IMG/VR virus record: IMGVR_UViG_3300025450_000020
Location: 1 to 64,000 of that record
Source: a virus
DNA length: 64,000 nt
Direction: 5' to 3' (one strand)
This document shows positions 254 to 63,982 of this stretch, in pieces. Both the position numbers and the translations under genes were made by a program. Below the pieces are notes generated by a model. It was not told where the DNA came from and ran no database searches. It was given only the letters and a program-made list of their open reading frames with translations. Position 1 is the stretch's first letter. Each line of letters opens with the position of its first letter.

Positions 254-361
254 TTATTTGCTACCTTCTTTCTTTGTTGCTTGTAGTATAACAGACACCG
301 CTGACAGCGTTTCTTTTTGGCGGGTGGCTAGGACATACGCCTTATATTCTTCTAGGTTCAC
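254..361 (-). CDS. small hypothetical protein MNLEEYKAYVLATRQKETLSAVSVILQATKKEGSK (35 aa, GTG start; not in ORF track)
   Basis: Translated by hand; AGAAGGT upstream, promoter at 391-412, stop abuts the next gene. Confidence 0.6.
   Translation of the reverse strand: MNLEEYKAYVLATRQKETLSAVSVILQATKKEGSK
285..306 (-). promoter_or_regulatory. early-type promoter TGTCAG-N10-TATACT (copy 1)
   Basis: Minus strand TGTCAG CGGTGTCTGT TATACT; one of six copies with identical spacing. Confidence 0.7.
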
Positions 362-390
362 TTTGTGACCTTCTTTCTCTTGATACCCCT

Positions 391-412
391 AGTATAACAG
401 AACGTACTGACA
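391..412 (-). promoter_or_regulatory. early-type promoter TGTCAG-N10-TATACT (copy 2)
   Basis: Minus strand TGTCAG TACGTTCTGT TATACT. Confidence 0.75.
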
Positions 413-461
413 TTATTCTACTTACCCACGAGTAATTTCATATTGTGAGACGCTCAAATAA

Positions 462-477
462 TGTGATAAAAATCATA
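462..477. promoter_or_regulatory. CRP/GlxR-like box TGTGA-N6-TCATA
   Basis: 1 mismatch to TGTGA-N6-TCACA; intergenic; same offset from its promoter as the box at 2159. Confidence 0.5.
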
Positions 478-550
478 CCGTAAACGACACGCCCGAGTGC
501 GGGTCGGCCCGCATCTGATAGTTGAACTTTCAATTATTTATTATGGATCA

Positions 551-579
551 TGAGCAGTTTTAATTCTTGCTCAGGAATT
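551..579 (-). ncRNA. putative H-type RNA pseudoknot, copy 1
   Basis: AAUUC C UGAGCA A GAAUU AAAAC UGCUCA; stem 1 covaries with copy 2. Confidence 0.65.
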
Positions 580-583
580 TTAT

Positions 584-766
584 TTAATTGTGATTTACAG
601 TTTTAAAACATTCGTCCCAGAATCTATCTGAGTCAAATCTTTCGTTATCTTCTGCAAACATTTCTGCGAAATCATTTACCAAATCCTCAAATACTTCCAA
701 ACGCATTTCAGAACCATAAGAGTTTAGAATTTCTGCAGTTGCTACGTAGTCTTTACGTGTCATCAT
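584..766 (-). CDS. small acidic hypothetical protein (MMTRKDY family, paralog of 2238-2432)
   Basis: ORF track; AGGAG SD; clear paralogy. Confidence 0.8.
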   Translation of the reverse strand: MMTRKDYVATAEILNSYGSEMRLEVFEDLVNDFAEMFAEDNERFDSDRFWDECFKTVNHN

Positions 767-831
767 TTTTGATTTACTCTCCTTTTATTAGTAGGGCGGG
801 ACTACTAGAGCCCCGCCTAAAAATTATAGCA

Positions 832-1002
832 TTACTTTGAGGTTTTTACCATAGCGAAACGATATGAACCATTTGCAAGAACCAAACCTACACGAGTTAG
901 CTTTGAGTTAATTGGTGTGAAATCACGGATTCGTCCTGTGACACCTGTCTTGCTAGTTGTGAACAAATCTCCGATTTGATATGTGTATCCGTTGAGTGAC
1001 AT
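832..1002 (-). CDS. small beta-rich protein MSLNGYTYQIGDLFTTSKTGVTGRI... (56 aa; not in ORF track)
   Basis: Translated by hand; AAGGA SD; paralog of 1085-1246. Confidence 0.8.
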   Translation of the reverse strand: MSLNGYTYQIGDLFTTSKTGVTGRIRDFTPINSKLTRVGLVLANGSYRFAMVKTSK

Positions 1003-1036
1003 TAGTTTTCCTTTTCTTTTTTTCTTGTTGGGTTGT

Positions 1037-1065
1037 TGAGCAGTTTTACAACTTGCTCAGGTTGT
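1037..1065 (-). ncRNA. putative H-type RNA pseudoknot, copy 2
   Basis: ACAAC C UGAGCA A GUUGU AAAAC UGCUCA. Confidence 0.65.
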
Positions 1066-1084
1066 CTAGGGTATTTCCCTAAAC

Positions 1085-1246
1085 TTAGAAAGTAACGGTT
1101 GTGAAGCGTTCCTCGCCATTGACATCAAGAAGAACAAGAGTCGTGTTAGCGTCCTTTGGCTCTATTGCCTTGATTACGCCTGTGACCTTTGACTTCTGAG
1201 TGGTGAACAAATCGCCTACCTGATAAGTCTTGTTTGCTACTGTCAT
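1085..1246 (-). CDS. small beta-rich protein MTVANKTYQVGDLFTTQKSKVTGVI... (53 aa; not in ORF track)
   Basis: Translated by hand; AAGGA SD; promoter at 1284-1305; paralog of 832-1002. Confidence 0.8.
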   Translation of the reverse strand: MTVANKTYQVGDLFTTQKSKVTGVIKAIEPKDANTTLVLLDVNGEERFTTVTF

Positions 1247-1283
1247 GTTTCTTTTCCTTTTCTTGTTAGTTGGTTATGTCCCT

Positions 1284-1305
1284 AGTATAGCACTAGGGTC
1301 TGACA
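1284..1305 (-). promoter_or_regulatory. early-type promoter TGTCAG-N10-TATACT (copy 3)
   Basis: Minus strand TGTCAG ACCCTAGTGC TATACT. Confidence 0.75.
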
Positions 1306-1310
1306 TTGGT

Positions 1311-1517
1311 TTATGGGTGATAAACCAAAACTGTGCCTTTGCGGGCTACTTTGAGCCTTTGGTGTCTCATGCCCTTAAATGGATTAGCTGCATGAGTCTT
1401 TGATAGTTTAATTGTATGGACATGATAAACCCGTGCTTGGGCGGGACTTGTGATAATCAGGAGAAGAATTACCACTAGAGCGAATAGCATTTTTTTCATT
1501 AGTCTAAGTGCTTCCAT
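1311..1517 (-). CDS. small membrane/secreted protein (signal-peptide-like N-terminus, basic C-terminus)
   Basis: MKKMLFALVVILLLIITSPAQA resembles a Sec signal peptide. Confidence 0.6.
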   Translation of the reverse strand: MEALRLMKKMLFALVVILLLIITSPAQARVYHVHTIKLSKTHAANPFKGMRHQRLKVARKGTVLVYHP

Positions 1518-1534
1518 TTCTTATTGTTTAGGTA

Positions 1535-1556
1535 ATTATACACGAAGGCGCTGACA
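1535..1556 (-). promoter_or_regulatory. early-type promoter TGTCAG-N10-TATAAT (copy 4)
   Basis: Minus strand TGTCAG CGCCTTCGTG TATAAT. Confidence 0.7.
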
Positions 1557-1584
1557 AGCAGTGCTAGCATTATGAGAGTTTTCA

Positions 1585-1776
1585 TTAGATACACTCCACA
1601 CAGTAGCACTTAGGATTTACAGCGAATAACCATTTAATGATAATCGCACGATATAAGTTAGATAAACCATAAGCAGATTTTACTCCGCCATTATTGTATT
1701 CATGAATAATACGATTTTCTAATGCACCCGAAAGTCCGAGTTCAGCGAATATGTTTATTGTTTCTAGTGTAGTCAT
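1585..1776 (-). CDS. hypothetical protein with C-terminal CxCxxC
   Basis: ORF track; ATG at 1776 chosen for the AAAGGTGG SD. Confidence 0.65.
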   Translation of the reverse strand: MTTLETINIFAELGLSGALENRIIHEYNNGGVKSAYGLSNLYRAIIIKWLFAVNPKCYCVECI

Positions 1777-1810
1777 TTTGACCACCTTTCTTTAGTTTCT
1801 AATACTGAGT

Positions 1811-1839
1811 ATTCTAGCAGGTTGTTTGGGAAAAATCAA
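1811..1839 (-). promoter_or_regulatory. sigma70/SigA-type promoter TTGATT-N17-TAGAAT with extended -10
   Basis: Seen directly; GACAC (1843-1847) and a CRP-like box (1861-1876) lie upstream. Confidence 0.65.
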
Positions 1840-1871
1840 GGTGACACGCCGTTGTGTCTGTGTGTTTTATA

Positions 1872-2057
1872 TCACACTGAGAATTTGTGTAAATCACCAC
1901 AATTCGGGCAACCATACTCAATTTCATCACCTTCATTAAACTCTTGGTCTACATTGACATAAACGCCACAAGTTGTGCATTTATCCCATTCCATATAAAA
2001 CTCGTTTGGACAATTTTCGTGGCTTGTGCAACCACCCTTGATAATTAGTGAATTCAT
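1872..2057 (-). CDS. small zinc-ribbon protein (CxxC...CxxC)
   Basis: CTTC and CPNC motifs; AAAGGA SD. Confidence 0.65.
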   Translation of the reverse strand: MNSLIIKGGCTSHENCPNEFYMEWDKCTTCGVYVNVDQEFNEGDEIEYGCPNCGDLHKFSV

Positions 2058-2087
2058 TTGGAATTCCTTTCTTTTGTTTATACGAGT

Positions 2088-2109
2088 ATTATAGCAGGGG
2101 GGTCTGACA
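2088..2109 (-). promoter_or_regulatory. early-type promoter TGTCAG-N10-TATAAT (copy 5)
   Basis: Minus strand TGTCAG ACCCCCCTGC TATAAT. Confidence 0.75.
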
Positions 2110-2158
2110 TTACCCGCCAGTATATGTGTACAAATCGGACACGTAAAAAAACTATTTT

Positions 2159-2174
2159 TGTGAGCTTCGTCACA
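2159..2174. promoter_or_regulatory. perfect CRP/GlxR-like box TGTGA-GCTTCG-TCACA
   Basis: Exact match to the CRP-family consensus; intergenic. Confidence 0.55.
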
Positions 2175-2237
2175 CAGTATGCGACACGCCCGAGCGGGTC
2201 GGCCTTGGATCGGTGGGTCGGCCCAACAGCGGAGAAA

Positions 2238-2432
2238 TTAATCTCCGAAACACGCATCCCAAAATTTATTTTCATCAAAGTTAGGATTATCTTTTGCAAA
2301 CATTTTAATAAAAGGTTGAACCAACGAATCATCAAACTCTGCAACGAATGACGGGCGGGATTCAGAATTATATTCTGTCAAATATGAATTAAGAATCTTA
2401 GCGATAGAAACATAGTCTTTACGAGTCATCAT
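2238..2432 (-). CDS. small hypothetical protein (MMTRKDY family, paralog of 584-766)
   Basis: Shared MMTRKDYV..A.ILNSY and F..DN..FD...FWD.CF. Confidence 0.8.
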   Translation of the reverse strand: MMTRKDYVSIAKILNSYLTEYNSESRPSFVAEFDDSLVQPFIKMFAKDNPNFDENKFWDACFGD

Positions 2433-2436
2433 TTAT

Positions 2437-2538
2437 TTATTTCCAATCTTTAAAAATATCTTCAACAACTGTTAGTTGTTCATCGGTTAAGTGGTCTAGT
2501 TGTATCGCATCAGCGAAACCAAAAATATCTTTTTCCAT
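2437..2538 (-). CDS. tiny acidic protein MEKDIFGFADAIQLDHLTDEQLTVVEDIFKDWK (33 aa)
   Basis: Translated by hand; GAGGTG SD; tightly packed operon. Confidence 0.65.
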   Translation of the reverse strand: MEKDIFGFADAIQLDHLTDEQLTVVEDIFKDWK

Positions 2539-2539
2539 A

Positions 2540-2683
2540 TTACAACACCTCATCAGGGTCAAAGTGTGCAACGGGGATAAAGACATCTTCCATATCCTCA
2601 GAAGCCAATTCATCTAGCATAGATTGGTAATCGTCTGCTAGTTCAGACCAACGGTCATTAGTTTTATCAAATGAGTATGACAT
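2540..2683 (-). CDS. tiny, very acidic protein MSYSFDKTNDRWSELADDY... (47 aa)
   Basis: Translated by hand; AAAGGTGG SD; TAATG coupling to the upstream gene. Confidence 0.65.
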   Translation of the reverse strand: MSYSFDKTNDRWSELADDYQSMLDELASEDMEDVFIPVAHFDPDEVL

Positions 2684-2844
2684 TATTCTGCCACCTTTCC
2701 TGTGCAGTAGATACCTGAATCAGTAGCCATCCATGTAGATAGCGGGCTACCTCGCCAATAGCGGATAGTCTTGCCACACGAGCAGGTTGTAGACTCTTTA
2801 ACATTGTAGCCTGATTGGGCTGGGAAGTGTAGTTTCATTTTCAT
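2683..2844 (-). CDS. small protein with H/CxC/C residues, possibly Zn-binding (53 aa)
   Basis: Translated by hand (MKMKLHFPAQSG...TCSCGK...YCTGK); AAAGGA SD. Confidence 0.6.
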   Translation of the reverse strand: MKMKLHFPAQSGYNVKESTTCSCGKTIRYWRGSPLSTWMATDSGIYCTGKVAE

Positions 2845-2901
2845 TTAGTTATCCTTTCAAGATACTTTCGTTTGATTGGGTTTCTCCCTTTCAATAAGAT
2901 A

Positions 2902-2930
2902 AATATAACAGAGGGGTCTGACATTTTCAA
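2902..2930 (-). promoter_or_regulatory. promoter TTGAAA-N17-TATATT containing TGTCAG in the spacer (copy 6)
   Basis: Minus strand TTGAAA A TGTCAG ACCCCTCTGT TATATT. Confidence 0.7.
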
Positions 2931-3138
2931 GTCCAAAATGCATACAATTCGGACATCTTTTAAAAATAGTTTGTGATGTGCGCCACATTTTGGTAGGACA
3001 CTCCAGACAATTCGGACATTTCGGGCGCACTATTCTGAAAATCGTTTTTGGCTTTCCAATGCGAATCATACATGGAAAATTGGGAATCACATTTTTGTTC
3101 ATTTTAAAATGTTATTAAAAGTATGGTATGATACAGTT

Positions 3139-3582
3139 ATGAGATACAATAAAGGAAATTCAGCAACACATAAAAGATGTCCAAAATGCGGGGAGCGTAA
3201 AGAAAGATCAGAATACTGGAATGATGCTTCAAGACCTGATGGAATAACAGCATATTGTAAGCCATGTAAGGCAGAGGTTACAAATATGCATGTTAGTAAA
3301 AATATGGGATATTATAAAAATTCTTGGAAAGCTTATGCTCTTAAAAGAAAATATGATTTAAGCATGGAAGAATTTGAAAACATGCTTAAAAATCAAGATT
3401 ATAAGTGTGATATATGTCACAAAGAGATAAAAAACTATTCTGCTGTAGATCATGATCATAAAACAGGTAAAATTAGAAGCCTTTTATGCAGAAAGTGCAA
3501 TCTTGGTTTAGGTGCTGCAAAAGATAGCGTGGAAATTTTAGAAAATATGGTCAAATACTTGGAGATTCATGAAAACATGTAA
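3139..3582 (+). CDS. endonuclease VII-like (His-Me finger) endonuclease with N-terminal Zn finger; probably leaderless
   Basis: CxxC motifs, Q..KCDIC, VDHDHKTGKIRSLLCRKCN; TGG-TATGAT ends 6 nt before ATG 3139. Confidence 0.85.
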   Translation: MRYNKGNSATHKRCPKCGERKERSEYWNDASRPDGITAYCKPCKAEVTNMHVSKNMGYYKNSWKAYALKRKYDLSMEEFENMLKNQDYKCDICHKEIKNYSAVDHDHKTGKIRSLLCRKCNLGLGAAKDSVEILENMVKYLEIHENM

Positions 3583-3970
3583 AAATTGCGGGACAATAGG
3601 AGAATCTTCTTTATTTTTAAAAGATAGAAGTAAATGTAGAGAATGTCATAAAAAATATTTAAAAGATCGTAGAGCAAATAACGAAGAATTACGTTTAAAG
3701 GAAAATGAAGATATGACCTGGAGACGTAGATTACGGGAATATGGTGTTACAAAAGAAGAATTTTATGCTATTTTTGAAAAACAGGGCGGTAAGTGTGCAA
3801 TTTGCCTAGATGCCATTACAGATAAGGATTCTATGGATCATTGTCACAATAAAAATAAGGCTAGAGGTATCTTGTGTACTGGATGCAATATTTCTTTAGG
3901 TCAATTTGAAGACAATATAAGTACATTAAAATCTGCTATTGAGTATTTGGAAAAATATGGAAACATGTGA
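3569..3970 (+). CDS. endonuclease VII-like endonuclease, second tandem copy
   Basis: QGGKCAIC...MDHCH..NKARGILCTGCN. Confidence 0.85.
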   Translation: MKTCKNCGTIGESSLFLKDRSKCRECHKKYLKDRRANNEELRLKENEDMTWRRRLREYGVTKEEFYAIFEKQGGKCAICLDAITDKDSMDHCHNKNKARGILCTGCNISLGQFEDNISTLKSAIEYLEKYGNM

Positions 3971-4091
3971 CAAATGTTGGCGGGAATTCAAAGAGACAAT
4001 TCATACCAATGATGGCATATTTCACTATTGCGGATTACATGCAAAAGAACTGAAAGAATCCCTAGAAGCAGAAAATAAGGATTTTTACTAG
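3957..4091 (+). CDS. small Zn-finger protein METCDKC...YCGLH (44 aa; not in ORF track)
   Basis: Translated by hand; same 14-nt overlap as the preceding gene pair. Confidence 0.6.
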   Translation: METCDKCWREFKETIHTNDGIFHYCGLHAKELKESLEAENKDFY

Positions 4092-4879
4092 ATATCTAGA
4101 TCAATATCTGTTATAAAATAAGTTTGGTAGAAATTTTGAGCAATTCTACGAGTCAAAATGTGATAAAAAATTTGGCGGGAGATAGAAAGATCATGAAAAT
4201 CAAAGGTGTCTAGATAATCTAGGGCTATTTGAGCATCATTTTCATTTATAGCATGCTTTCCAGCTAGTGGAGATGATGAAATTTTATCAAAACACTTATT
4301 TACAATGCTCAAATCACGTAAAATTTTGTCGGGAGTCCAAGAATCTTCTCCTCTATCCTTTTTAACTGGATAAATATGACATGGAGAGATAGAAAATGTA
4401 CCTTTTGTCCAATGTACATCAGGAAATTTAGTGCGAATATAGGATTCTTCTTCTTCAAACCATTCTATGAGTCTCAAAACCTTGGGATTTTCATTTCTGA
4501 TAGCATTTTTCCATCTGGAATCAGCAATATTCTGTTTTCCATTGCGATTTCTAGATTGAGACATATAAGGAAGGCGGGAAATCAGATCAGAAGGAGCTAT
4601 AACCTCTCCATTATAAGACTTTCTCTCTATCTGATAGTTAATTTCATCAATAGCAGATCTTTTAGGACGTTTTTTCTGCAAGATGGTCAATTCTTCATCT
4701 GTAAATCCAAAAAGTAGCTCGGTATGCTTATAATGAGCATTTAGACCATATTGTAGATTATGTAATCCAGATCTAGGAATGATGAAAAAATACTTATCAG
4801 TATAAATGTGATAGGTATCTTCTCCAGGAGTAAGCGTAAATTTTATATCGTGACATGTGTCACTCAGATTGAACATCAT
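4088..4879 (-). CDS. hypothetical protein
   Basis: Long ORF; start moved to ATG 4879 after GAGGA. Confidence 0.7.
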   Translation of the reverse strand: MMFNLSDTCHDIKFTLTPGEDTYHIYTDKYFFIIPRSGLHNLQYGLNAHYKHTELLFGFTDEELTILQKKRPKRSAIDEINYQIERKSYNGEVIAPSDLISRLPYMSQSRNRNGKQNIADSRWKNAIRNENPKVLRLIEWFEEEESYIRTKFPDVHWTKGTFSISPCHIYPVKKDRGEDSWTPDKILRDLSIVNKCFDKISSSPLAGKHAINENDAQIALDYLDTFDFHDLSISRQIFYHILTRRIAQNFYQTYFITDIDLDI

Positions 4880-5105
4880 TTTCTTCATCCTCAAATATAA
4901 AAGATGGGGCGGGAGCAAGCACAGAACCTTGTTCGTGCAAAGATATCATCTTATCAGTATCAGCACCTAGCTTATCTGCAATCATTACTAGCATATCATA
5001 GTTACGCTGCTCTTGGATGAATATTGCACCTAGAAGCTCACGGATATTTTCAAATATTGCCTGGAATTCAGCAAGAGACTCCATGCTTTCCCCTAGATTC
5101 CCCAT
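4860..5105 (-). CDS. hypothetical protein
   Basis: ORF track; GAGGAG SD. Confidence 0.75.
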   Translation of the reverse strand: MGNLGESMESLAEFQAIFENIRELLGAIFIQEQRNYDMLVMIADKLGADTDKMISLHEQGSVLAPAPSFIFEDEENDVQSE

Positions 5106-5161
5106 ATTATCTCCTCAAATACTCCCATACAAATATAGTACCCAATACTATAAATACATAC

Positions 5162-5428
5162 TTAGCCATTGTCTATTATCTCCCTTGTTAAATAATCCCA
5201 CTTATTGGCTTCCATTCCCGCCGAGTTATTGATTACCAGATCTCCATTTTCGGCGGTATAGGTATGAAGCCATTGTATATTGTGGGTAAGCTCTACTTTT
5301 CCTGCAAATATGTGGTCAATCTGACCCTTATCATTACCTTGTTTCACGTGAATCAAAATTTGAAAGGATTGGGGGTCTTCCTCCTCAAACGGCTCAATAT
5401 ACGCTCTTTCAATGTGTATCTTTGCCAT
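5162..5428 (-). CDS. hypothetical protein
   Basis: ORF track; packed in operon. Confidence 0.65.
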   Translation of the reverse strand: MAKIHIERAYIEPFEEEDPQSFQILIHVKQGNDKGQIDHIFAGKVELTHNIQWLHTYTAENGDLVINNSAGMEANKWDYLTREIIDNG

Positions 5429-5921
5429 GAGAGGTTTCTGTGAGTAATGGGTAATCTTCTGCCATCATATTGTTGAAGGGTTCATCACCTATCCAGAAAA
5501 TATTCTCCAATACTCTCCATGCGAAGTTTGTTCCTTCTTCTAAATGCTTTGATATTGCCCAAGATAGGACTTCTGAATCCAGTTTCCGTCCCGCCTCAAT
5601 CAGCATCGTATATTCAATACCCTTAATTGTGCGGGTGGTGAAGATTGCATTACTTCTTGAGGGTTTAAAACTATCAGGCATTGTCGGATCTGTCAAGTAG
5701 TCACACTTAAATAGCTTACAGGGCAACATTGGTCTTTCCTCATATGCCCCGCATCCAAAACCTTGCTGCACAAATGAACATGGGCTTAAAGACATATCAT
5801 CTTTCATTCCCATGAATGACTCACGACCATCAGATAGCTTGATATCAGCCCTTAAATGCCCCTCACAGCATTTTGTGCATCCTTCACATGATCTTCCATC
5901 AACAATTGGCAAAAGGTCCAT
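5409..5921 (-). CDS. YkgJ-like cysteine-cluster (putative Zn/Fe-chelating) protein
   Basis: CxxCxxCC and C..YEERP..C..F.C signature. Confidence 0.75.
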   Translation of the reverse strand: MDLLPIVDGRSCEGCTKCCEGHLRADIKLSDGRESFMGMKDDMSLSPCSFVQQGFGCGAYEERPMLPCKLFKCDYLTDPTMPDSFKPSRSNAIFTTRTIKGIEYTMLIEAGRKLDSEVLSWAISKHLEEGTNFAWRVLENIFWIGDEPFNNMMAEDYPLLTETSHGKDTH

Positions 5922-5927
5922 TAAATC

Positions 5928-7393: not shown

Positions 7394-8392
7394 ATGAAGG
7401 TATCTTGGACGGGTGCTCCAGAGTATATGGATCGCAACGTTGGATATGGCGAAGCATCATATCATATCTTTCAAGAATTAAATAAGCAAGGAATTGAATG
7501 TGTAATTGGAGACCCACAGTCTAAAATTTCCGTTTCATTCATTCAGCCAAATATGTACAAGTTTGGCAAGCATCAATATAAAATTGGATATACACCTTGG
7601 GAATCTACTTGGATTCCAGAATCCTGGGAGCAACCTTTAAAAACTGGCATTGATGAGATGTGGACAACTTCTCCATGGTGTGCAGATGTATTTAGAAAAT
7701 ATACTGATAAGCCTGTATTTGTTTATGAGCATGGTGTAGAGGATGAATGGATTCCTTTAAAGAGAACTCGTAACGAATCCCGCCCTTTTAGATTTTTGCA
7801 TGTCGGAGAACCCTACTTTAGAAAAGATGCTCAGATGGTTGTTAGAGCATTTACTGAAATCTTTGGTAAAGATCCAAACTTTGAGCTTGTGTTAAAAGCA
7901 AGTCGCATAAACACTACTAGAATTTTTGATCCAGATACTGGAGAAGTCCGTGGTTCTCCTGGAGCATTTTATCCAAATATTAAAACCATTGAAGCACTTT
8001 TGTCAAACGAGCAAATGAATGGCTTGTATGACTTGTGCGACGTTTTTGTTTATCCGTCATGGGGCGAGGGGTTTGGATTAAATCCTCTCCAAGCAATGGC
8101 TAAAGGAATACCTACTATTTGCACAGAAGCCTGGGCTACATATGCAAGATATATCACAATGCCTTTAGGTTCAGAAAAAGTTGGTTCTCCATGGCCTACA
8201 ATTCATCCTGGCGAAATGTACAGACCTAACTATGAGCATTTAATTAACTACATGAAAGATGTTGCAGAGAACTATGATAAATATAGTGACCTAGCTTACA
8301 AAAATGCTTTCCTAATCCATAAAGACTACAACTGGGAAAAGGTAACAAAGCCAGCTGTTCAAAGACTAAGAGAAATAAACGAAAATCTTTAA
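7394..8392 (+). CDS. glycosyltransferase, GT-B fold (GT4-like)
   Basis: GYG, TPWES, FLHVG...RK, DVFVYPSWGEGFGLNPLQAMAKGIPTI. Confidence 0.9.
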   Translation: MKVSWTGAPEYMDRNVGYGEASYHIFQELNKQGIECVIGDPQSKISVSFIQPNMYKFGKHQYKIGYTPWESTWIPESWEQPLKTGIDEMWTTSPWCADVFRKYTDKPVFVYEHGVEDEWIPLKRTRNESRPFRFLHVGEPYFRKDAQMVVRAFTEIFGKDPNFELVLKASRINTTRIFDPDTGEVRGSPGAFYPNIKTIEALLSNEQMNGLYDLCDVFVYPSWGEGFGLNPLQAMAKGIPTICTEAWATYARYITMPLGSEKVGSPWPTIHPGEMYRPNYEHLINYMKDVAENYDKYSDLAYKNAFLIHKDYNWEKVTKPAVQRLREINENL

Positions 8393-11404: not shown

Positions 11405-11948
11405 AGAATTAGTTGAAAACGCTTCTCATGATATGTTTAATCCTCAACTTAACTTTGATATTGCAAAGAAGTACGACGAGCTGGGCCAAAATGCTGCAGC
11501 AATTTCTTTTTATTTGAGAGCTGCAGAATATGGCTATGAGTCTTCACCTATTATTGTTTATACTTCATTAATAAGAATTTCTTTCTGTCTAGAAAGTCAG
11601 ACTGGGCGGGAGCACACTGTAAGTAGCACATTATTACAAGCAATTGAATATATGCCTAGCAGACCTGAAGCATACTTTTTACTGTCACGTTTTTATGAGA
11701 GAACACAAAAATGGCAAGAGTGTTATACATGGGCAGAAATAGGTTTAAGATTTGCTACAAGACATGATCCATTACCAGCAGATGTTGAGTACCCAGGTTC
11801 ATATGGATTTATGTTTGAAAAAGCCGTAAGCGGTTGGTGGCTTGGAAGAAAAGAAGATTCTTTTAAAATCTTCAAGGATATGCTTGAAGAAAACATATGG
11901 GATAACTATCGCTCAACCATTGAATACAACCTTAAAAACTACGTCTAA
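11391..11948 (+). CDS. tetratricopeptide-repeat protein
   Basis: AISFYLRA, P.RPEAYF.LSRFY helical repeats. Confidence 0.7.
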   Translation: MKSIEELVENASHDMFNPQLNFDIAKKYDELGQNAAAISFYLRAAEYGYESSPIIVYTSLIRISFCLESQTGREHTVSSTLLQAIEYMPSRPEAYFLLSRFYERTQKWQECYTWAEIGLRFATRHDPLPADVEYPGSYGFMFEKAVSGWWLGRKEDSFKIFKDMLEENIWDNYRSTIEYNLKNYV

Positions 11949-26366: not shown

Positions 26367-26407
26367 TATAATTAAAATGGTAAAATTAAAGGGCGGGAGG
26401 TAGAAAA

Positions 26408-30797: not shown

Positions 30798-30821
30798 TCC
30801 CGCCTTTTTAGGCGGGACTTT
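30798..30821 (+). terminator. hairpin TCCCGCC-N6-GGCGGGA, probable terminator
   Basis: Perfect 7-bp GC stem with a short T run. Confidence 0.5.
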
Positions 30822-56000: not shown

Positions 56001-56125
56001 GGTCATATGCGGTACAGACTGGTTATAAGAATTATTTGCTGGTAGTTTATATGCAATATACAGATGCGGGTAGCTCAACAGTTAAAAATGGACCTTCATC
56101 CTATAGTTTCTCCTCATCTGTCTAA
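50075..56125 (+). CDS. large tail tip/baseplate hub protein with IPT/TIG and FN3-like domains
   Basis: FIDEYG...F, G.PLIQVGD; P.TGS..GGT.VTITGTNF IPT motif. Confidence 0.75.
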   Translation: MLSVTTDIQNYFNSNSIRVLPHVSGEWNYNLIYSPYATYSGTGKGPTTAKIMNPASWNFAGKTSVVSSTAGKVTSTFTGKTALEFLVSTTTNVAGALDTSDTTNFNGSASINISTGGSVNKCYKIVFLARSLDNNRINLIAQGSSAGTQLSGTASVELDNLDWQKVEFKIGQKPTDGNFSNFTLTLDMVNSTLSSTGNWGILVDQIQIYEITYFDYLYGNLWDTDSVFHWFRPGDSFVRSGNSSLPDSAVARTIAATPSGWNNSAPCSAMVYSPRVLFSAAQNAIYKNGVLSPFSQYKYFVSELPNGSTSIGATYQELLATNKIVLKFNVSQSIPDNIVVNISNSTTNVTTAIAVPSNWISSSGVCVLYWNGSTWSNTKWTWSPNTTSGMPFIGPQGEIQVYSGGSLVNGYQYIDSISVTQLSSTPVNNYIGLKTSNPSAYNELTRMQVIEVSPRMEIDLSSFVLDFDIKKELDNSGTPLPISSMSANSATVSFSNIPLIGPNNYPLSVFSNDANSSQYISPLQGMIVKNIKLYLNYYLPEKSNYVIPSGVVYVDSWDNTDIKVAKANCYDIIKFLQTLPVADYVSQSQSTINIFTNLMDTAGFTDYDYDSLLSVLSDSNQQVVTNYFFADNANKTVYQILQEAFLAFQVGCFIDEYGIMRFLNLNQIISNDTPSKNADGTSLAIVDKDVVIDTYNENIKTKIGKILMRYRAPQIKRSIGLGSSTTTPTSILQVAPDIIWQQDSEDLVPFNILQNDISSVSQNYYTTPQSSFDNLFLTTVLGHKGYCVIEGEVISYGDMEIIISATDTNGVVVASETVYVKDQNDLTAKIAQFSNQYGLANVTSNYTGRFVNVSRGLFGTVAKTHKIMTNANKEYSNKFYTRALSPNSSTISVTSDPSVSTVINVPTLGANIKTMVFANQQDAGYSTYSANFRLPQSSTDISGGIFFNCSGNTSLSGNTYFIEVASSPSSKNNAERTYKLYFYELDSSGNKTSLLTKTSLDVTSAITNYMINEPDDSLYQGYVGGFVNIKFVNTPGKRVIYVNKTRFILDQLTYTDPKSSKTTITNPGYFNAAVSLLMPSSFQNTNFGFFTNTTSSSTTTVELSTVYATESPIDDIVDYYFQTKDFLNAMVAGYNVTEKSFFAQARPQIFGINFYDVQLALTPSLGTDIFKANYLFTYYPNNDQSQPPITLNVPDYALSYSNVASTGFRAKFAVANASNYSVYTKTGPELKQLVDSALLLSSRGVTVLTPQLTIEKVISPQNVNEVVELQSDWIQSADAADSILKLLSYSADSFSRDIVINVFGKPLIQVGDVLTLHYNLKNIGNPNDSLADITFFVQGVEQAWANGGITTTLTLNQITYNGVTRQSLKNYYPQTSYLAQLPKPVKVTPTTGSDLGGTNVTITGTNFLPNSTVYFGKNAATNVTYVNSTTITATTPATTIPGPTTISVVANGVTGSSGPIFTYTVPAQQIQTVSNLSATLGTYNSSIFAYPLNITWNVSSTAGSQYNAFNLEIDGPVSKYTYSNVGDTIKSQNTYTTPAAFYFGDQLTITLTPLYIDGNGNVNKGTAATYVLNTIPQNIGPQQPALVAGDFTVAASQNQFGSIPLVDVTIGYILGANTTYTHGYLTNPSGGSATVVATGNANQITFSGISSNLGNVTFYVTGVGSSSESAASSETINVTSGTSTSTNNGLLAPVITNLTTNIINGKSGTVSVEIQPTSGSKPLQYSLNHISGTVASSSNLPVTDLYPVSQLTTLPDNNLLITSSLITNLVGSTYTFYVDAIDSTGAVSSSSNNLTVSVPATSISATGVSNTGYLDWTVSSNIFDKITIVASAVIGNTTVSDTLTKSGNNWVSTAGTVISTDGSNFAYPASSLFSSSSYVSYTVTGYTSGKSGGTSSGYGYMPGTVSSNTVQAAPNIFYTYNAGTTLWSWQKDAMVGGATFVNYTWNLYSSYAFGSNQQPYGTVLYRSGTATQQSNGSYAVQTGYKNYLLVVYMQYTDAGSSTVKNGPSSYSFSSSV

Positions 56126-56154
56126 AATGATATAATTGGGTGTACTGGAGAAAA

Positions 56155-56853
56155 ATGACAAATCAACCAAAAAATAGTTATAATTATGAATTAACCACTA
56201 AACAGCGTGGTAAGATTTATATCTCCAAAACTGATGATAGATGGAAAGACCCTAAGAAAAGGGCAATACTTTATGCATATTATGGAGCTGCCAATGTAAT
56301 TCCAGTTGATCCCGCCACATTAACTCAGCTTGAAGGATCAGGCAGCACACTGGCAACATATGCACAAGAAAATTTTAGTCCACAAATAGCTGTAACTGAT
56401 TCTGTTATTTCAACAAACATACCAGGGCTTGGCGGGGGAGTAATAAATATTGATCCTCCAACAAATCTATCAGTGGTTAGTACTTCATTAAGTACAGGTT
56501 CAGACGGATCTGCATTGGTAAATATAAATGTTAGTTTTGATGGATCGCCAGGTTTTACATATGATGTAGTTGCAGTACCAGCCTCAGCCGCACTAGGCCC
56601 AGATACAGTAACAAACGTAAGCGCTACAACCTCTGGACTAACTTTTAATGTTAGTTGGACTGGTGTTTCAAATGCTTCAAATTATGTCATTTCTGCATCA
56701 TCAGGATTGTCAACTTATTATTCTGCAACCCCAGTCACTGGCACCTCGGGGACTGTAACGGTAGCAAGTCATGGATCGTATACAATTAGTGTTACTCCAT
56801 ACAACTCTATAGGTATTGGAGGGGGAGCAGGATCAACAACTGCTACAATATAA
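56155..56853 (+). CDS. minor tail protein with FN3-like domain
   Basis: VSWTGVSNASNY...Y.ISVTPYN..G.G. Confidence 0.65.
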   Translation: MTNQPKNSYNYELTTKQRGKIYISKTDDRWKDPKKRAILYAYYGAANVIPVDPATLTQLEGSGSTLATYAQENFSPQIAVTDSVISTNIPGLGGGVINIDPPTNLSVVSTSLSTGSDGSALVNINVSFDGSPGFTYDVVAVPASAALGPDTVTNVSATTSGLTFNVSWTGVSNASNYVISASSGLSTYYSATPVTGTSGTVTVASHGSYTISVTPYNSIGIGGGAGSTTATI

Positions 56854-56865: not shown

Positions 56866-57735
56866 ATGTTAAAAGGTACTTATGTATTCAAGCAAGACGG
56901 TGTTGAGATAGGACGTTCTGAGAACGTAATTACAACAAACGGCAAAAACACCATAGTTCAATATTTGGCGGGAGCTGTAACAGATTGGGCATCAGCTATT
57001 TCAGTAGGTGCTATATCAACAGCTACATCTGTATCAGATACAAATCTATACTATGAGATTGCAAGAACTCCAGTAACTTTAAAGTCTTATATTTATGGAA
57101 CCCCAAATATTATTGTTGTAAAAGGCACTATTGATTCTACAGTTGCCGCAAATATTTATGAGATTGGCGTATACCCTTATAGCACAAGTCAAGTATTTGG
57201 AAAGAGAGATCAGTTAATTATAGATGATTTTTCTAATATAGCTAACTGGTCAGGAACATATACGACAAACGCTTACGCTGCACAAAGTCCTATATCTCCT
57301 AGAAGCGGTTTGTACAATGTAAATCTTACATCGGGCAATGCAATTACCAACAGTAGCCTAGTTTTAGATTTTTCTACATATAGTACTATTGATACGGTTG
57401 ATTTGCTTGTAAATGTACCGAGCGGATCTTCAGGAACGCTAACACTAACTTTTACAGATGTTAATGGATTGACATCTACAATATCTTATCCATATAGTTC
57501 AACAGGATATCAAGTATTATCTCAAGTATTTCCTTCAAGTGTATTTAATTTATCTACAGTATCTACAGTTTCTTTATCATCAACCTCAAATATTACGGTT
57601 GATGCAATGCGAGTTTCAGTAAATGCAGAACTTTCAAATAGTGCGGCCCTGGTTAGCCGTTCAGTATTAAGTACGCCTATTGCAAAAATTGCAGGCACAC
57701 CATTGGATATTGAATACTACGTTCAATTATCTTAA
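56866..57735 (+). CDS. minor tail protein
   Basis: N.ITT.GK..I..YLAG, L..EI.R, I.EIG.Y, K......IEY. Confidence 0.65.
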   Translation: MLKGTYVFKQDGVEIGRSENVITTNGKNTIVQYLAGAVTDWASAISVGAISTATSVSDTNLYYEIARTPVTLKSYIYGTPNIIVVKGTIDSTVAANIYEIGVYPYSTSQVFGKRDQLIIDDFSNIANWSGTYTTNAYAAQSPISPRSGLYNVNLTSGNAITNSSLVLDFSTYSTIDTVDLLVNVPSGSSGTLTLTFTDVNGLTSTISYPYSSTGYQVLSQVFPSSVFNLSTVSTVSLSSTSNITVDAMRVSVNAELSNSAALVSRSVLSTPIAKIAGTPLDIEYYVQLS

Positions 57736-57749
57736 AGGGAGGGAAGTAA

Positions 57750-58634: not shown

Positions 58635-58642
58635 GGAATAAA

Positions 58643-60298: not shown

Positions 60299-60343
60299 AC
60301 AGAAATACGCTAATAGTGTATAATGAATAAAAAGGAGAAATAA

Positions 60344-60577: not shown

Positions 60578-60580
60578 TTA

Positions 60581-61083: not shown

Positions 61084-61090
61084 GGAAAAA

Positions 61091-61261
61091 ATGGAAAAAT
61101 CAGAATTGATTATCGCTGCTTTAAAAGAGCGTATATCTCAAATGGCTGGAGATCATGCTATTGAAATAGCATTATTAAGAGCAGAAATTACAGAGTTAAT
61201 GGATAAGCAAAAGGCTAAAGATGAATATTCCAAGACTATTTCAGAAATCACTTCCCAGTAA
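61091..61261 (+). CDS. hypothetical protein
   Basis: Start moved to ATG 61091 after AAGGA. Confidence 0.6.
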   Translation: MEKSELIIAALKERISQMAGDHAIEIALLRAEITELMDKQKAKDEYSKTISEITSQ

Positions 61262-61631
61262 AAATTATAATCCTTTGGTTCCAAGTGGGTTAATTGCCCA
61301 TACAGACAAGGGTTATTTTTATATTAAGGGTAATAAGAAGTTTAAGTTTGTGTCTGAGAGGGCCATGCTTTCTTGGTCCCTGCCCATTGTTAAAACAAAT
61401 GACAATATGTTAAGCAAGCTTATGACTGCAGGAACATTAGGATTCAGAGACGGCACTTTGGTCAAGGACATCTCAGATGGTAAAATATATCTTATAAGCG
61501 ATTCAAAAAGACGCCACATCATAGAACCAGATGTGCTAGAATGGATTGAAGCGAATATAATCAAGGCGGGACAAAAAGAGATTCTTGTCCATACAGAAGG
61601 AGAACCACTAGATGGCAGCAATAACAACTGA
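61221..61631 (+). CDS. hypothetical protein
   Basis: ORF track; GFRDG.L......G.IY.IS..K.RHI. Confidence 0.7.
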   Translation: MNIPRLFQKSLPSKNYNPLVPSGLIAHTDKGYFYIKGNKKFKFVSERAMLSWSLPIVKTNDNMLSKLMTAGTLGFRDGTLVKDISDGKIYLISDSKRRHIIEPDVLEWIEANIIKAGQKEILVHTEGEPLDGSNNN

Positions 61632-62049
61632 TAATGCAATTATTGACTATAATACTATTACCAACATTGTCAACACCTTAAATACCCATGAGGATGTATT
61701 TACAGCATTTCAGCAACAGGCACTTGTGGTATCAGCAGATCAAACAAGCAATACAATCAATAACCTTCTTGTAAGTGGAACACAAATTGCATGTGTAAGA
61801 ATACAGATTCCAGCGGGATTCACTGGAAAAGCAGTAACCCTTAATCAAGCATTTAGTAATCCACCTATTATTTCAATAGCTGTTGAAACAAGTTCAACAA
61901 CAGCAGTATATGTTCCACAATTTAGTTTTCAAGCAAATGCGGCAAACAGCTCATACAATATAATTAATGTATCTGTAGTTAATCCTCTTAGAACTTATGA
62001 TACAACCCCAGTTGTTCTCCACATAACTGCGATCGGACAAAAGCAGTAA
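61612..62049 (+). CDS. putative virion protein with H-type-lectin/gp53-like C-terminus
   Basis: AFSNPP.I....,V..IAIG-type ending. Confidence 0.5.
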   Translation: MAAITTDNAIIDYNTITNIVNTLNTHEDVFTAFQQQALVVSADQTSNTINNLLVSGTQIACVRIQIPAGFTGKAVTLNQAFSNPPIISIAVETSSTTAVYVPQFSFQANAANSSYNIINVSVVNPLRTYDTTPVVLHITAIGQKQ

Positions 62050-62050
62050 A

Positions 62051-62311
62051 ATGTACGAGCCTATCAAGTTTTGGACAAAACGAGATAGAAGAATTAGCAA
62101 AGAAGGTTATGTTTTGATTAAAGTTCCAGAGCACCCAAAGAATTTTAAGGGTTGGTATTATGAGCATCGCCTTATTATAGAAAAACAATTAAATAGAATA
62201 ATTAATGATTGGGAAACCATTCATCATATAAATAACGACAAGAAAGATAATAGATTAATTAATCTATTTTTATGTTCAAGATTGGAACATAACAAAGCAC
62301 ACGTTGCTTGA
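62051..62311 (+). CDS. HNH endonuclease
   Basis: EHRLI.E..L.R......IHHIN.DK.DNR..NL......H...H. Confidence 0.85.
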   Translation: MYEPIKFWTKRDRRISKEGYVLIKVPEHPKNFKGWYYEHRLIIEKQLNRIINDWETIHHINNDKKDNRLINLFLCSRLEHNKAHVA

Positions 62312-62337
62312 CAAAAAACAATAGCATACGCTACAAT
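62308..62337 (+). promoter_or_regulatory. promoter TTGACA-N18-TACAAT
   Basis: Near-consensus sigma70 promoter. Confidence 0.65.
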
Positions 62338-62362
62338 TAACTAAACCTAAACAAAGGATTAT

Positions 62363-63118
62363 ATGAACGATTTAAAATGGATGATGGTGTCGGATATTCA
62401 TTTCCCCCGCCACGATGCAAGAAAGGTAGAACTCTTCATGAAGGTTATGAAGTGGTTCAAACCAGATGCAGTTGACCTACTTGGCGACATTGATGATGCT
62501 GATTCAACATCTCGTTGGGCTGCAGAATACCCTGCAGAATTTTCTATTCCCGTATCTGACGGTGGAGTTACAGGCACAAGAGATTTTCTTGCTGACCTAA
62601 GACAAACGTCGGGAGCTAATGCAGAACTACATTTTCATGACGGTAACCACGGCTGGACAAGACATGGCGATTATCTTGCAAAGAAAGCTCCAGCATTCCT
62701 AGAATTCATTACGCCTGATTCACTCTATGAATATAAAAAGCATGGCATTCACTGGCACGAATATAACGAGCCTCCTGTGAAACGTTATGGTGATATGTAT
62801 GGTCATCATGGTGAGTCCATTTCCAAACACTCTGGAGAATCAGTACGTAATGACGTAAACAACTGGGGGGTATCCCTAGTACGTGGACATTCTCATCGTA
62901 TGGGTGCCTATTATCAAACATACAACATCACGGGGCAAGAGCTTCGTGGGTATGAGATAGGTCATCTTTGCGACGAGGACAAGATGGATTATTCCATCCA
63001 AAAGAATTGGCAGGCAGGATTTGCAGTGGCACACGTTGTCAATGATTATCCACATATGCAGCTAATTCAAATTCATGACTACACTTGTGTAGTTGACGGT
63101 AAAATTTTTACCGCATAA
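62363..63118 (+). CDS. calcineurin-like metallophosphoesterase
   Basis: SDIH, LGD..D, GNH, HHG, GHSH motifs. Confidence 0.88.
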   Translation: MNDLKWMMVSDIHFPRHDARKVELFMKVMKWFKPDAVDLLGDIDDADSTSRWAAEYPAEFSIPVSDGGVTGTRDFLADLRQTSGANAELHFHDGNHGWTRHGDYLAKKAPAFLEFITPDSLYEYKKHGIHWHEYNEPPVKRYGDMYGHHGESISKHSGESVRNDVNNWGVSLVRGHSHRMGAYYQTYNITGQELRGYEIGHLCDEDKMDYSIQKNWQAGFAVAHVVNDYPHMQLIQIHDYTCVVDGKIFTA

Positions 63119-63135
63119 CCTATAAGGAGAAATAA

Positions 63136-63315
63136 ATGAACGCAAAGCGTAAGGCTCTTGTAGAGCACTATGTATATGCAACAGCTGCAGCAGCAGTGGC
63201 AATTTGGCAGGGTGGAAATCACGATGTCAAGAAGGTAGCATGGGCAGCACTCGTTGGTGTACTTGGTCCAGTTTTGAAGGCTACCATTGATCACTTCAAC
63301 GCACCAGCAAAGTAA
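63136..63315 (+). CDS. small membrane protein, holin-like (59 aa; not in ORF track)
   Basis: MNAKRKALVEHYVYATAAAAVAIW...AWAALVGVLGPVLKA; AAGGAG SD. Confidence 0.65.
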   Translation: MNAKRKALVEHYVYATAAAAVAIWQGGNHDVKKVAWAALVGVLGPVLKATIDHFNAPAK

Positions 63316-63335
63316 GTAATATATACAACTAAATA

Positions 63336-63521
63336 ATGCTGAATTGTAAAAAATGTACAGGACGAGTATTCGTTGACAGAGTTTATTCCCAGAACCTGCG
63401 GGTTGAATTGTTCTGTGTAATGTGTGGGAAAAGATGGATGGTCAAGAGAGATAATAGGTTTGGTTCATGGGTAGCAAGACAAGAGGAAATTCTGCAACAC
63501 GGTTACGGTATTTCTATCTAA
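63336..63521 (+). CDS. zinc-ribbon protein
   Basis: CKKC.GR.F.DR...FCVMCGKR. Confidence 0.75.
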   Translation: MLNCKKCTGRVFVDRVYSQNLRVELFCVMCGKRWMVKRDNRFGSWVARQEEILQHGYGISI

Positions 63522-63982
63522 ACGATAAGTTGCATAAAGTTTTGCGTCGCTCACGTGCCGAGGACCTAGTTGTCGCTTGGGATTACCAGTTGGGTAAGCG
63601 TGTTGCTTATAGTTTGGCTGATGTCAACAAAAATAAACAATACGCTTACTCCATCAAAGAGGTATGCAAGTTAATAGGAAAGCATGAAGATACTATTAAG
63701 TGGCATTTGTATAGAGGTGATTTAAGATTCCCTCAAAGAATTTATTCTCTTAATGGTAAGAAAACTCCAGGGAAGTACTTTTGGAGCGAAGATAATATTA
63801 GAGAGATGCATGATTTTTTTAAGACGGTTCATAGAGGTAGACCACGCAACGATGGCGGGATTACCCCAGGAGACATGCCGTCTAGAGCAGAATTAGAAGC
63901 AATGATGAAACAAGAAAACATTTTATATGTTAAAAATAGCGATGGGGAATTTGTCCCAGTTTGGAAAGCACCAGAATGGTAA
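63467..63982 (+). CDS. MerR-like helix-turn-helix DNA-binding protein
   Basis: YS.KEV.KLIG.H..TI......G...P......W...I; GRPR AT-hook-like motif. Confidence 0.65.
   Translation: MGSKTRGNSATRLRYFYLNDKLHKVLRRSRAEDLVVAWDYQLGKRVAYSLADVNKNKQYAYSIKEVCKLIGKHEDTIKWHLYRGDLRFPQRIYSLNGKKTPGKYFWSEDNIREMHDFFKTVHRGRPRNDGGITPGDMPSRAELEAMMKQENILYVKNSDGEFVPVWKAPEW

Follow-up and report, generated by a model that had tools for sequence, protein, structure and literature searches.

GGCGGGA, a dispersed and selected heptanucleotide in the DNA of an uncultured lake phage and its relatives, with a possible role as a Chi-like control word

Short words under selection have led to machinery before, as Chi did to RecBCD, KOPS to FtsK and uptake sequences to competence. 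Chi acts on helicase-nucleases of the RecBCD/AddAB class, turning them from degradation to the loading of RecA, and is active on the strand whose 3' end is at the point of entry. Uptake sequences are host-chromosome signals of 9-12 nt read by the competence machinery, and KOPS are chromosomal words that are read by the gamma domain of FtsK and converge on dif. Stoperators, the 13-14-bp sites to which the immunity repressor of the temperate cluster A mycobacteriophages binds, follow the direction of transcription; the sites of T7-type primases have a core of 3 nt (5 nt if efficient) and are not known to need enrichment. Phage LLS, a Chi-abundant phage, carries Chi at one copy per 1.86 kb (PMC12315714), and Chi-abundant lambdoid phages lack a recombination module of their own (PMC3784561, PMC12315714). 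Here we report that the heptanucleotide GGCGGGA (TCCCGCC on the other strand) forms a dispersed signal in an uncultured lake phage, in positions 1-64,000 of the 82,185-bp contig IMGVR_UViG_3300025450_000020. This whole stretch of 64,000 nucleotides is called the window.

The window has a G + C content of 39.9%, not the ~38% assumed in an earlier note that was made from the sequence alone. On the contig, 102 open reading frames (ORFs) were called, covering 95% of it, and annotation with Pfam and PHROG reached about 50 of them. Two null models were used: 100 dinucleotide-preserving shuffles of the window, and synonymous-codon shuffles of each gene of the contig, which keep the protein and the codon usage and leave intergenic copies fixed. 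The main control for relatives and hosts was the count of the reversed word. Host panels comprised 300 evenly drawn Actinomycetia genomes, including eight unpublished ones (G266, G010, G039, G033, G046, G035, G027 and G018) on which no conclusion depends singly, 250 Bacteroidota genomes, four complete acI-like genomes (1.34-1.44 Mb, 45-47% GC) and five genomes of 9-10 Mb.

GGCGGGA/TCCCGCC occurs 34 times in the window (24 on the + strand, 10 on the - strand), at exactly the starts that had been read by eye for the earlier note, and 42 times in the whole contig (30 + and 12 -). The dinucleotide-preserving shuffles averaged 2.14 copies and never exceeded 9, in agreement with the rough prior estimate of ~2. 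The enrichment also survives the codon-preserving shuffles that had been proposed as a check, which gave 8.3 +/- 1.6 copies for the whole contig, 6 of them the immovable intergenic ones. The excess over shuffles corresponds to z = 12-21, and the word is enriched 5-20-fold on both strands. When all heptamers were scanned de novo against the codon null, it ranked first in the contig and in the relative G305, and its single-substitution neighbours are far rarer (0-16 copies each). The window holds 58 GGCGGG/CCCGCC hexamers, 24 of them beyond the heptamers; about 23 had been claimed, and the nine example positions given were all correct. Density is about one copy per 2 kb (0.5/kb), and 86% of the sites lie within genes. 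The gaps between sites range from 13 bp to 8.5 kb (by inspection); regular spacing was rejected, the spacing being Poisson-like or clustered.

The enrichment is not a by-product of glycine codons. At the sites, codons are used that are rare in this phage, as the earlier note had observed (GCG, 7% of Ala codons; GGG, 5% of Gly codons; CCC, 8% of Pro codons), and the sparsity that it saw in Gly-rich genes is real: in the Gly-rich fibre genes the word occupies just 2 of the 226 sense positions open to it. In three genomes pooled, 69 of 892 sense contexts able to encode the word do so (7.7%), as do 30 of 270 antisense contexts (11.1%), which upholds the claim that the sites, unlike stoperators, are not oriented with transcription. 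Control words of the same composition are raised solely in sense Gly frames. Two other heptamers with six G or C, GGTGGCG (58 copies) and GTGGCGG (52 copies), are commoner than GGCGGGA; the earlier note had named such equal frequency as grounds for abandoning its idea, and formally these words supply it, but their cause is unrelated: they and similar words derive from runs of GGT, GGC and GGA codons and are confined to the sense Gly-codon frames of the fibre genes. A glycine-codon origin was therefore rejected for GGCGGGA, which is raised in antisense frames as well and nearly absent from Gly-rich genes. The raw strand bias of 30:12 arises because Ala-Gly and Gly-Gly are commoner than Pro-Ala, and there is no preference for the transcribed strand.

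The same signal is found in related phages. A search with the capsid protein yielded hundreds of related contigs in freshwater viromes; 80 related loci that were fetched contain 206 sites versus 15 expected, and whole related contigs carry 16-38 sites each versus 2-8 for the reversed word. In structural genes the site positions mostly differ among aligned relatives. In the early region five of six alignable sites (4174, 4908, 5216, 5589 and 7778) are kept in relative G306, with a flank identity of 61-86%. One sub-lineage, G307 and G314, has almost no GGCGGGA and carries AGCGGGA and TGCGGGA instead (core GCGGGA 21 versus 7 expected). No GGCGGGA was found in the more distant marine relatives.

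Over 7.4-80 kb the contig is syntenic with the Streptomyces phage Faust (Stanwilliamsviridae, Loccivirinae), the shared order being glycosyltransferase, RNR, portal, protease, capsid, tape measure and metallophosphoesterase, followed by DnaB, primase, SSB, DnaE, UvsX/RecA-like protein, Cas4-type nuclease, RuvC-like protein, TerS and TerL. An actinobacterial host is likely for the lake phage because of this synteny with Streptomyces phages and its collagen-like minor tail proteins. The contig appears to represent about three quarters of a genome of ~107 kb, relatives of similar length being 66-81% complete by CheckV and a 108-kb relative being rated complete; judged by Faust, it lacks what lies rightward of the tRNA cluster.

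In the complete genome of Faust (130,666 bp) the word recurs as GGCGGGT, with 48 copies on the + and 14 on the - strand versus 9 for the reversed word. Under the codon null GCGGG is the top pentamer of Faust, and GGCGGGT ranks third among strand-specific and second among strand-collapsed heptamers, with its overlapping extension CGGCGGG just above. The cultured Loccivirinae (Faust, Phredrick, Gilson and TunaTartare) match the lake phage in density, with 48-62 copies of GGCGGGT per 130 kb versus 9-12 of the reversed word and +:- ratios of 36:14 in Phredrick (S. griseus), 42:11 in TunaTartare (S. mirabilis) and 36:12 in Gilson (S. griseofuscus). Two members of the sister subfamily Boydwoodruffvirinae, LukeCage (3:1) and Daubenski (2:2), have four copies each and infect the same S. 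griseus strain as Phredrick. Since two subfamilies on one host strain differ, the trait is tied to the lineage of the phage, not to the species of the host. CCCGGC, considered as a separate polar word of the Boydwoodruffvirinae, was rejected (1.35 times the control in Daubenski, not enriched in LukeCage).

GGCGGGA is accordingly a selected, dispersed signal at the level of the DNA and not a coding by-product. This conclusion, which was also the core of the earlier note, is well supported, because the enrichment outlasts codon shuffles, affects sense and antisense frames, is kept in relatives despite the turnover of sites, and recurs as GGCGGGT in cultured phages. A literature search with the bare word and with Stanwilliamsviridae turned up no earlier description of the motif. 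A word under strong selection is thus shared by Streptomyces phages from soil and by abundant, uncultured actinophages from lakes; with the same core present in cultured phages (Faust, Phredrick, Gilson, TunaTartare), it is directly testable, and it offers a practical metagenome marker for the lineage. The sites in the window are listed below (sense and antisense refer to the gene that contains the site).

795-801, +: GGCGGGA, intergenic, pairing as 5' arm with CCCCGCC (812-818) in a terminator-like hairpin that precedes an A/T run
1440-1446, +: site, antisense in the leftward small ORF 1311-1517
2354-2360, +: site, intergenic
3979-3985, +: site, intergenic, start of the dense convergent cluster 3979-5595
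4174-4180, +: site, antisense in the leftward gene 4088-4918, orthologous position kept in G306
4573-4579, +: site, antisense in 4088-4918
4908-4914, +: site, antisense at the 5' end of 4088-4918, kept in G306 and G307
5216-5222, -: site, sense in the leftward gene 5162-5428, kept in G306, first past the switch from + to -
5589-5595, -: site, sense in the leftward gene 5409-5921, kept in G306
7778-7784, -: site, antisense in the glycosyltransferase gene 7394-8392, kept in G306
10713-10719, -: site, antisense in 10391-11404
11605-11611, +: site, sense in 11391-11948
14625-14631, -: site, antisense in the tail-fibre gene 11989-15387
15330-15336, +: site, sense in 11989-15387
15601-15607, +: site, sense in 15445-15753
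20390-20396, -: site, antisense in the Gly-rich gene 20334-21374
26392-26398, +: site, between genes 24933-26366 and 26408-27049
29920-29926, -: site, antisense in 29852-30085
30798-30817, 30798 - and 30811 +: inverted pair TCCCGCC-N6-GGCGGGA, intergenic hairpin at the change point of polarity (mostly - before it, mostly + after it), just upstream of the gp22-like and portal genes
31316-31322, +: site, sense in 30854-33478
31979-31985, +: site, sense in 30854-33478
36186-36192, +: site, sense in the CHAP/peptidoglycan-binding gene 35470-36333, not conserved among 39 aligned relatives
44691-44697, +: site, sense in the tape-measure gene 44158-49503, kept in 5 of 42 aligned relatives, the rest having synonymous variants
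47526-47532, +: site, sense in 44158-49503
49329-49335, +: site, sense in 44158-49503
49520-49526, +: site, sense in 49503-50075
49883-49889, -: site, antisense in 49503-50075
51284-51290, +: site, sense in 50075-56125
54577-54583, +: site, sense in 50075-56125
56310-56316, -: site, antisense in 56140-56853
56967-56973, +: site, sense in 56866-57735
61565-61571, +: site, sense in 61221-61631
63854-63860, +: site, sense in 63467-63982, the gene of a conserved protein of 171 aa that matches HTH_17 weakly and is 50% identical to Faust gp52

Beyond the window, a cluster of five copies spans 76713-78663, and the putative TerS gene contains two of these. The region 77817-80181 (L081 15632-17996), close to the right end of the contig, encodes TerL (613 aa) and the putative TerS (176 aa, phrog_9507), beside nine tRNA genes.

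The heptamer proved to be the peak word of a broader motif, so that the bare word of the earlier note was confirmed as the peak while the recognised unit is degenerate, centred on GCGGG and flanked by A-rich positions. The consensus is [G>T>A]GCGGG[A], and the pentamer GCGGG occurs 138 times versus 56 expected. The position before the core prefers G over T over A and is never C; the position after it is A, then G, T or C; and these two flanks of the heptamer (-1 and +1) are nearly independent of each other. Further out, positions -6 to -4 are 53, 51 and 47% A and position +6 is 52% A; all other [GC]6A heptamers have ~30% and 35% A there. These positions are also poor in C, and the A-rich flanks recur in Faust. 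The one-step precursors GGTGGGA and GGCAGGA stand at 0.96 and 0.92 of expectation.

Hairpin pairs were found at two loci only (795/812 and 30798/30811), and the motif was therefore rejected as a hairpin half-site in general. Both inverted pairs are intergenic, GC-rich and terminator-like. An arrangement of GGCGGGT, a 7-15-nt gap and ACCCGCC is also present in TunaTartare (9467/9482 and 11992/12006), Phredrick and Gilson.

CpG is depleted overall (rho 0.52-0.60), and GCGG/CCGC is the sole enriched NCGN context (1.7-2.1-fold). CCGG is absent from the 82 kb, where ~90 copies are expected, and from G305, G306, G307 and G314; TCGA has 7 copies versus 126 expected, and CGCG 5 versus 48. This near elimination of CCGG, TCGA and CGCG indicates that the phage is under heavy restriction pressure and yet retains a CpG-containing word. 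The four acI-like genomes show no CpG depletion and no TCGA avoidance. Faust has 349 copies of CCGG and 360 of TCGA, i.e. no avoidance. GCGC is reduced to 7 copies in G305, and Faust has no GATC, no CTGCAG and a single CAGCTG. The word itself is enriched on both strands and not avoided, which bears out the distinction that had been drawn from restriction and BREX sites and also separates it from Type III targets; the words truly avoided are CCGG, TCGA and CGCG.

GGCGGGA exceeded the reversed word in none of the 300 Actinomycetia genomes. In the four acI-like genomes GCGGGA stands at 0.4-1.2 times and GCGGG at 0.57-0.90 times the zero-order expectation, and GGCGGGA occurs about once per 25-31 kb; the two that were checked for a strand skew of GGCGGGA between replichores had none. 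An AdnA/AdnB-like gene pair is present in the acI-like genomes, in which RecC was not found. The five genomes of 9-10 Mb have GGCGGGT at 0.8 times the reversed word, and a 400-kb stretch of one of them (71% GC) has 79:73 copies on the two strands, i.e. no skew. The 250 Bacteroidota genomes reached at most 5-7-fold, at low density. An apparent strand polarity in Bacteroidota and Streptomyces-like genomes was dismissed as an artefact of listing order, the one genome that was rechecked having mixed strands. A scan of genome contigs (L082-L097) with the RNR protein matched phage contigs evidently mis-binned by low GC and coverage, in metagenome-assembled genomes (MAGs) labelled as a cyanobacterium, Saccharibacteria, Bacteroidia (four contigs, one MAG), Brevundimonas, Aquiluna, Maricaulis, Patescibacteria and an archaeon. 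MAG binning was therefore rejected as host evidence.

The orientation independence claimed in the earlier note holds relative to transcription but apparently not relative to position in the genome. In Faust the left 12.3 kb contains 2 + and 8 - sites, including three - sites inside rightward genes, and the remainder 46 + and 6 -. The corresponding values for the left zone and the rest are 0+:6- and 36+:8- in Phredrick, 1+:5- and 35+:7- in Gilson, and 3+:5- and 39+:6- in TunaTartare. Terminal clusters are present in Phredrick and Gilson: the first 1.9 kb hold four - sites, and the last 2.8 kb four + sites. In the window the polarity switches at the hairpin 30798-30817; the switch of Faust likewise lies just upstream of the portal gene. 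The coding opportunities that are used in the window divide as follows.

0-5 kb: + sites, 4 of 7 coding opportunities used; - sites, 0 of 2
5.0-30.8 kb: + sites, 3 of 237 used; - sites, 7 of 31
Beyond 30.8 kb: + sites, 18 of 114 used; - sites, 4 of 57

The 5'-to-3' direction of the word thus appears to run from the switch toward the genome ends, which matches the orientation in which Chi is active for entry at either end; with an origin at the switch, the word would equally lie on the template of the lagging strand. The word also predicts the location of the genome ends of the lake phage, which on a Chi-like reading would be near 4.9-5.2 kb of the window. The convergent cluster consists of four + sites (3979-4908) followed by two - sites (5216-5589); if the contig were permuted across the genome ends, the right end would meet the left one at this cluster, and only then would the first 5 kb fit the pattern.

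Each of the described systems shares part of this picture. Like Chi-abundant phages (LLS and relatives, P. aeruginosa MD8; PMC12315714, PMC3784561), the lake phage has a short, G-rich and asymmetric word at about one copy per 2 kb that runs through coding DNA, an apparent orientation bias related to the ends and a threat of breakage; terminal clusters are seen in its relatives Phredrick and Gilson. Those phages carry the Chi of the host, which is over-represented and skewed there, whereas the word described here is rare and unskewed in candidate hosts; they have no recombination module, whereas this phage has its own RecA/UvsX-like protein, Cas4-type nuclease and RuvC; and the bias here is weaker (~70-80%) and switches part-way along the genome. 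With the stoperators the sites share dozens of copies of an asymmetric site across an actinophage genome, many of them intragenic, but they have a 7-bp core with weak flanks, and antisense frames account for half of the enrichment once it is normalised by opportunity. Neither a repressor nor an integrase turned up in the scanned proteins (~50 of 102 ORFs annotated). Uptake sequences (Neisseria DUS, Pasteurellaceae USS) resemble the word in density (0.5-1/kb), in the use of several reading frames, in the turnover of positions and in terminator hairpins formed by inverted pairs. Here, however, the word is in a phage and not in a host, no uptake process applies, and the enrichment expected in the chromosome of a competent host was not seen in the sampled candidates. 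KOPS/SRS (FtsK/SpoIIIE) are likewise G-rich 7-8-mers whose orientation flips at a defined point, but the words here diverge from the switch point, and no FtsK-like translocase was found in the phage.

The reading that we favour, with a probability of about 0.35, is that GGCGGGA is a Chi-like polar control word for a DNA enzyme that tracks from an end or a fork. It rests on the length and G-richness of the word, on a density equal to that of Chi in LLS, on the apparent end-directed orientation and on the terminal clusters of Phredrick and Gilson; as in Chi, the word is short (7 nt) and asymmetric, contains GCGG and has much rarer neighbours. A processive enzyme starting at an end or a fork would track phage DNA until it meets the word, where it would switch from degradation to recombination or to the restart of replication; phage DNA, dense in the word, would survive and recombine, and word-poor host DNA would not. 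Both the class of reader and the protein are inferred; candidates are the host helicase-nuclease AdnAB or a phage partner of the phage's Cas4-type nuclease and UvsX/RecA recombinase. Among the products of the phage are a RecA/UvsX-like protein, a Cas4-type nuclease, a RuvC-like protein, EndoVII and its own replisome. Its lifestyle is recombination-dependent, and it is clearly exposed to DNA breakage, as CCGG, TCGA and CGCG are almost eliminated.

A more specific version, in which the word is a phage-owned self signal, i.e. a viral analogue of Chi read by a phage factor or by a host AdnAB reprogrammed by the phage, is rather unlikely. Phage DNA, with one word per 2 kb, would be spared, and host DNA at the spacing of the acI-like genomes would be destroyed; the specificity would drift between lineages, from GGCGGGA in lake phages to GGCGGGT in Loccivirinae and [A/T]GCGGGA in the G307 lineage. 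If this version were true, these would be the first Chi-like signals for Actinobacteria or AdnAB, and viral DNA would be distinguished from host DNA in a new manner that needs no base modification.

Several observations weigh against a Chi-like role. To our knowledge no Chi is known for AdnAB, nor any Chi-like signal for Actinobacteria, and a literature search for a Chi of AdnAB found none. Every characterised Chi is enriched or skewed in the host; the word studied here is neither over-represented nor, where this was checked, skewed in the sampled candidates, among which the true host was not identified, and one site per 25-31 kb is too sparse to serve an acI-like chromosome. The sister subfamily on the same host strain does without the word. 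The phage departs from the class of Chi-abundant phages (Bobay 2013; Zheng 2025) in that its own recombination genes are present. The polarity depends on few independent sites, as the Loccivirinae share ancestry, and is confounded with gene direction; in rightward genes only, Fisher tests gave p ~0.02-0.07 per genome. The near-absence of + sites from 12-30.8 kb may reflect the codon habits of the Gly-repeat genes, and the sites in the first 5 kb of the contig are oriented the other way (+). Finally, the A-rich flanks on both sides fit a read-out of duplex shape by a binding protein at least as well.

A site for a protein that binds duplex DNA, either phage-encoded and specific to this lineage or conserved in actinobacteria and with a role other than nuclease control, is possible but still unlikely. 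Such a protein might organise or condense the genome, counter Lsr2-type silencing of AT-rich DNA or modulate transcription globally. The A-rich and C-poor flanks at -6 to -4 and +6 are as expected for minor-groove or shape read-out, sense and antisense frames are equally enriched, and the 3' base (A or T) and the base at -1 (G, or A/T in G307 and G314) vary between lineages as if co-evolving with a phage protein. The absence of the motif from the sister subfamily on the same host and the conservation in position of five of six early-region sites (flank identity 0.61-0.86) point the same way. On the other hand, 86% of sites are intragenic and most turn over between close relatives, which is unusual for operators; the core is just 7 bp with weak flanks; and a duplex binder has no need of positional polarity. 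The conserved small candidates are the 171-aa helix-turn-helix-like protein (63467-63982), the putative TerS and a Zn-ribbon protein, and none could be tied to the motif. The Zn-ribbon protein was rejected as the reader, this lead not being significant at database scale. A search for the reader by presence and absence was likewise abandoned, the genes shared with Faust and missing from Daubenski 22-72 kb amounting to two tiny ORFs, and no DNA-binding candidate was found among the genes missing from G307 and G314.

It is improbable that the word is an initiation signal on the lagging-strand template for a DnaG-type phage primase or for replisome loading, set at Okazaki spacing in an AT-rich genome. 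DnaB, a primase with CHC2 zinc finger and Toprim domain, SSB and DnaE are encoded by the phage and all relatives, and the lineage variants of the word would fit co-evolution with the zinc finger of the primase. The spacing on the favoured strand, ~2-2.7 kb, is Okazaki-like, and, given the polarity, the lagging-strand template would carry the word on either side of a point 10-25% from the left end. The T7 origin, too, lies 10-25% from the left end, and T7-type primase sites share with the word the lagging-strand template, an own helicase-primase and an origin near the left end. Known DnaG and T7-type primases, however, recognise trinucleotides, and a requirement for 7 nt would be unprecedented. 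The primase of the Boydwoodruffvirinae is orthologous (42% identity to that of the window), yet they have no comparably enriched word, and the minority orientation is also well above controls.

The function list of the earlier note (a Chi-like word, a site for a protective or coating protein, a self-mark, and an ejection or packaging signal) was the right shortlist insofar as the first three remain under discussion, none of them proved; self-mark and ejection or packaging are unsupported, and no features of a packaging signal were seen. A self-mark for a sequence-specific modification or nicking system of the phage is very unlikely. The asymmetric 7-nt word resembles targets of Type IIG, Type III and BREX-type systems, and the phage, under very strong restriction pressure, encodes several glycosyltransferases and EndoVII/HNH nucleases; but genes for a methyltransferase, hydroxymethylase or deazaguanine pathway were not found on the contig (~75% of the genome; ~50 of 102 ORFs annotated), and tblastn with the Faust methylase gave no match on it. 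Target sites of modification are not expected to be enriched, and the polarity would be left unexplained. A link to the methylase was rejected, the family of Faust gp6 being widespread in actinophages and absent from the lake contigs.

Equally small is the probability of a non-adaptive by-product, whether of a very short patch (VSP)-like mutation or repair bias, of a pile-up of tolerated CpG or of recombination drive. In its favour, GCGG/CCGC is the one NCGN context in which CpG is not depleted; sub-words absorb part of the excess, with 27.9 copies expected from an order-5 Markov model versus 34 observed; and the flanks are nearly independent of the core. Yet other "safe" CpG contexts are depleted and not enriched, the A-rich flanks, polarity and early-site conservation argue for selection on the word itself, and the same core occurs in soil phages of 47% GC that do not avoid CCGG or TCGA. 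VSP-like repair drive in particular was rejected, as the precursors GGTGGGA and GGCAGGA are not depleted. That the phage copies a word abundant in its host (a host Chi, KOPS, an uptake sequence or compositional mimicry) is barely credible: the 0.47/kb of Faust is near the 0.38-0.41/kb that a genome of 71% GC has by composition alone, but no enrichment was found in the sampled Actinomycetia, acI-like and 9-10-Mb genomes and no skew in those checked for it, Bacteroidota reached a maximum of 5-7-fold, and two phage subfamilies on one host strain differ.

The early region of the window is a strain-variable mosaic with deletions. Three of the four freshwater metagenome runs contain contigs, of 3-4 times higher depth, in which position 3034 is joined straight to 4878, skipping two tandem Endonuclease-VII/HNH genes (3109-3970) and most of the gene for a 276-aa protein; further joints connect 473 to 3007 and 1026 to 2658. 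The ~2-3x depth over 1-3.2 kb is explained by such co-occurring strain variants and deletions, and the assembled contigs of the public runs showed no molecule ends. Two other words are raised in these phages. CTGGAAC/GTTCCAG has 49 copies versus 18.9 expected from an order-3 Markov model, with GGAACA, GGAACT and TGGAAC also raised, and the same is seen in the pooled relatives; in G307 and G314, GGCGCAC/GTGCGCC has 16 copies versus 3.1 expected under the codon null.

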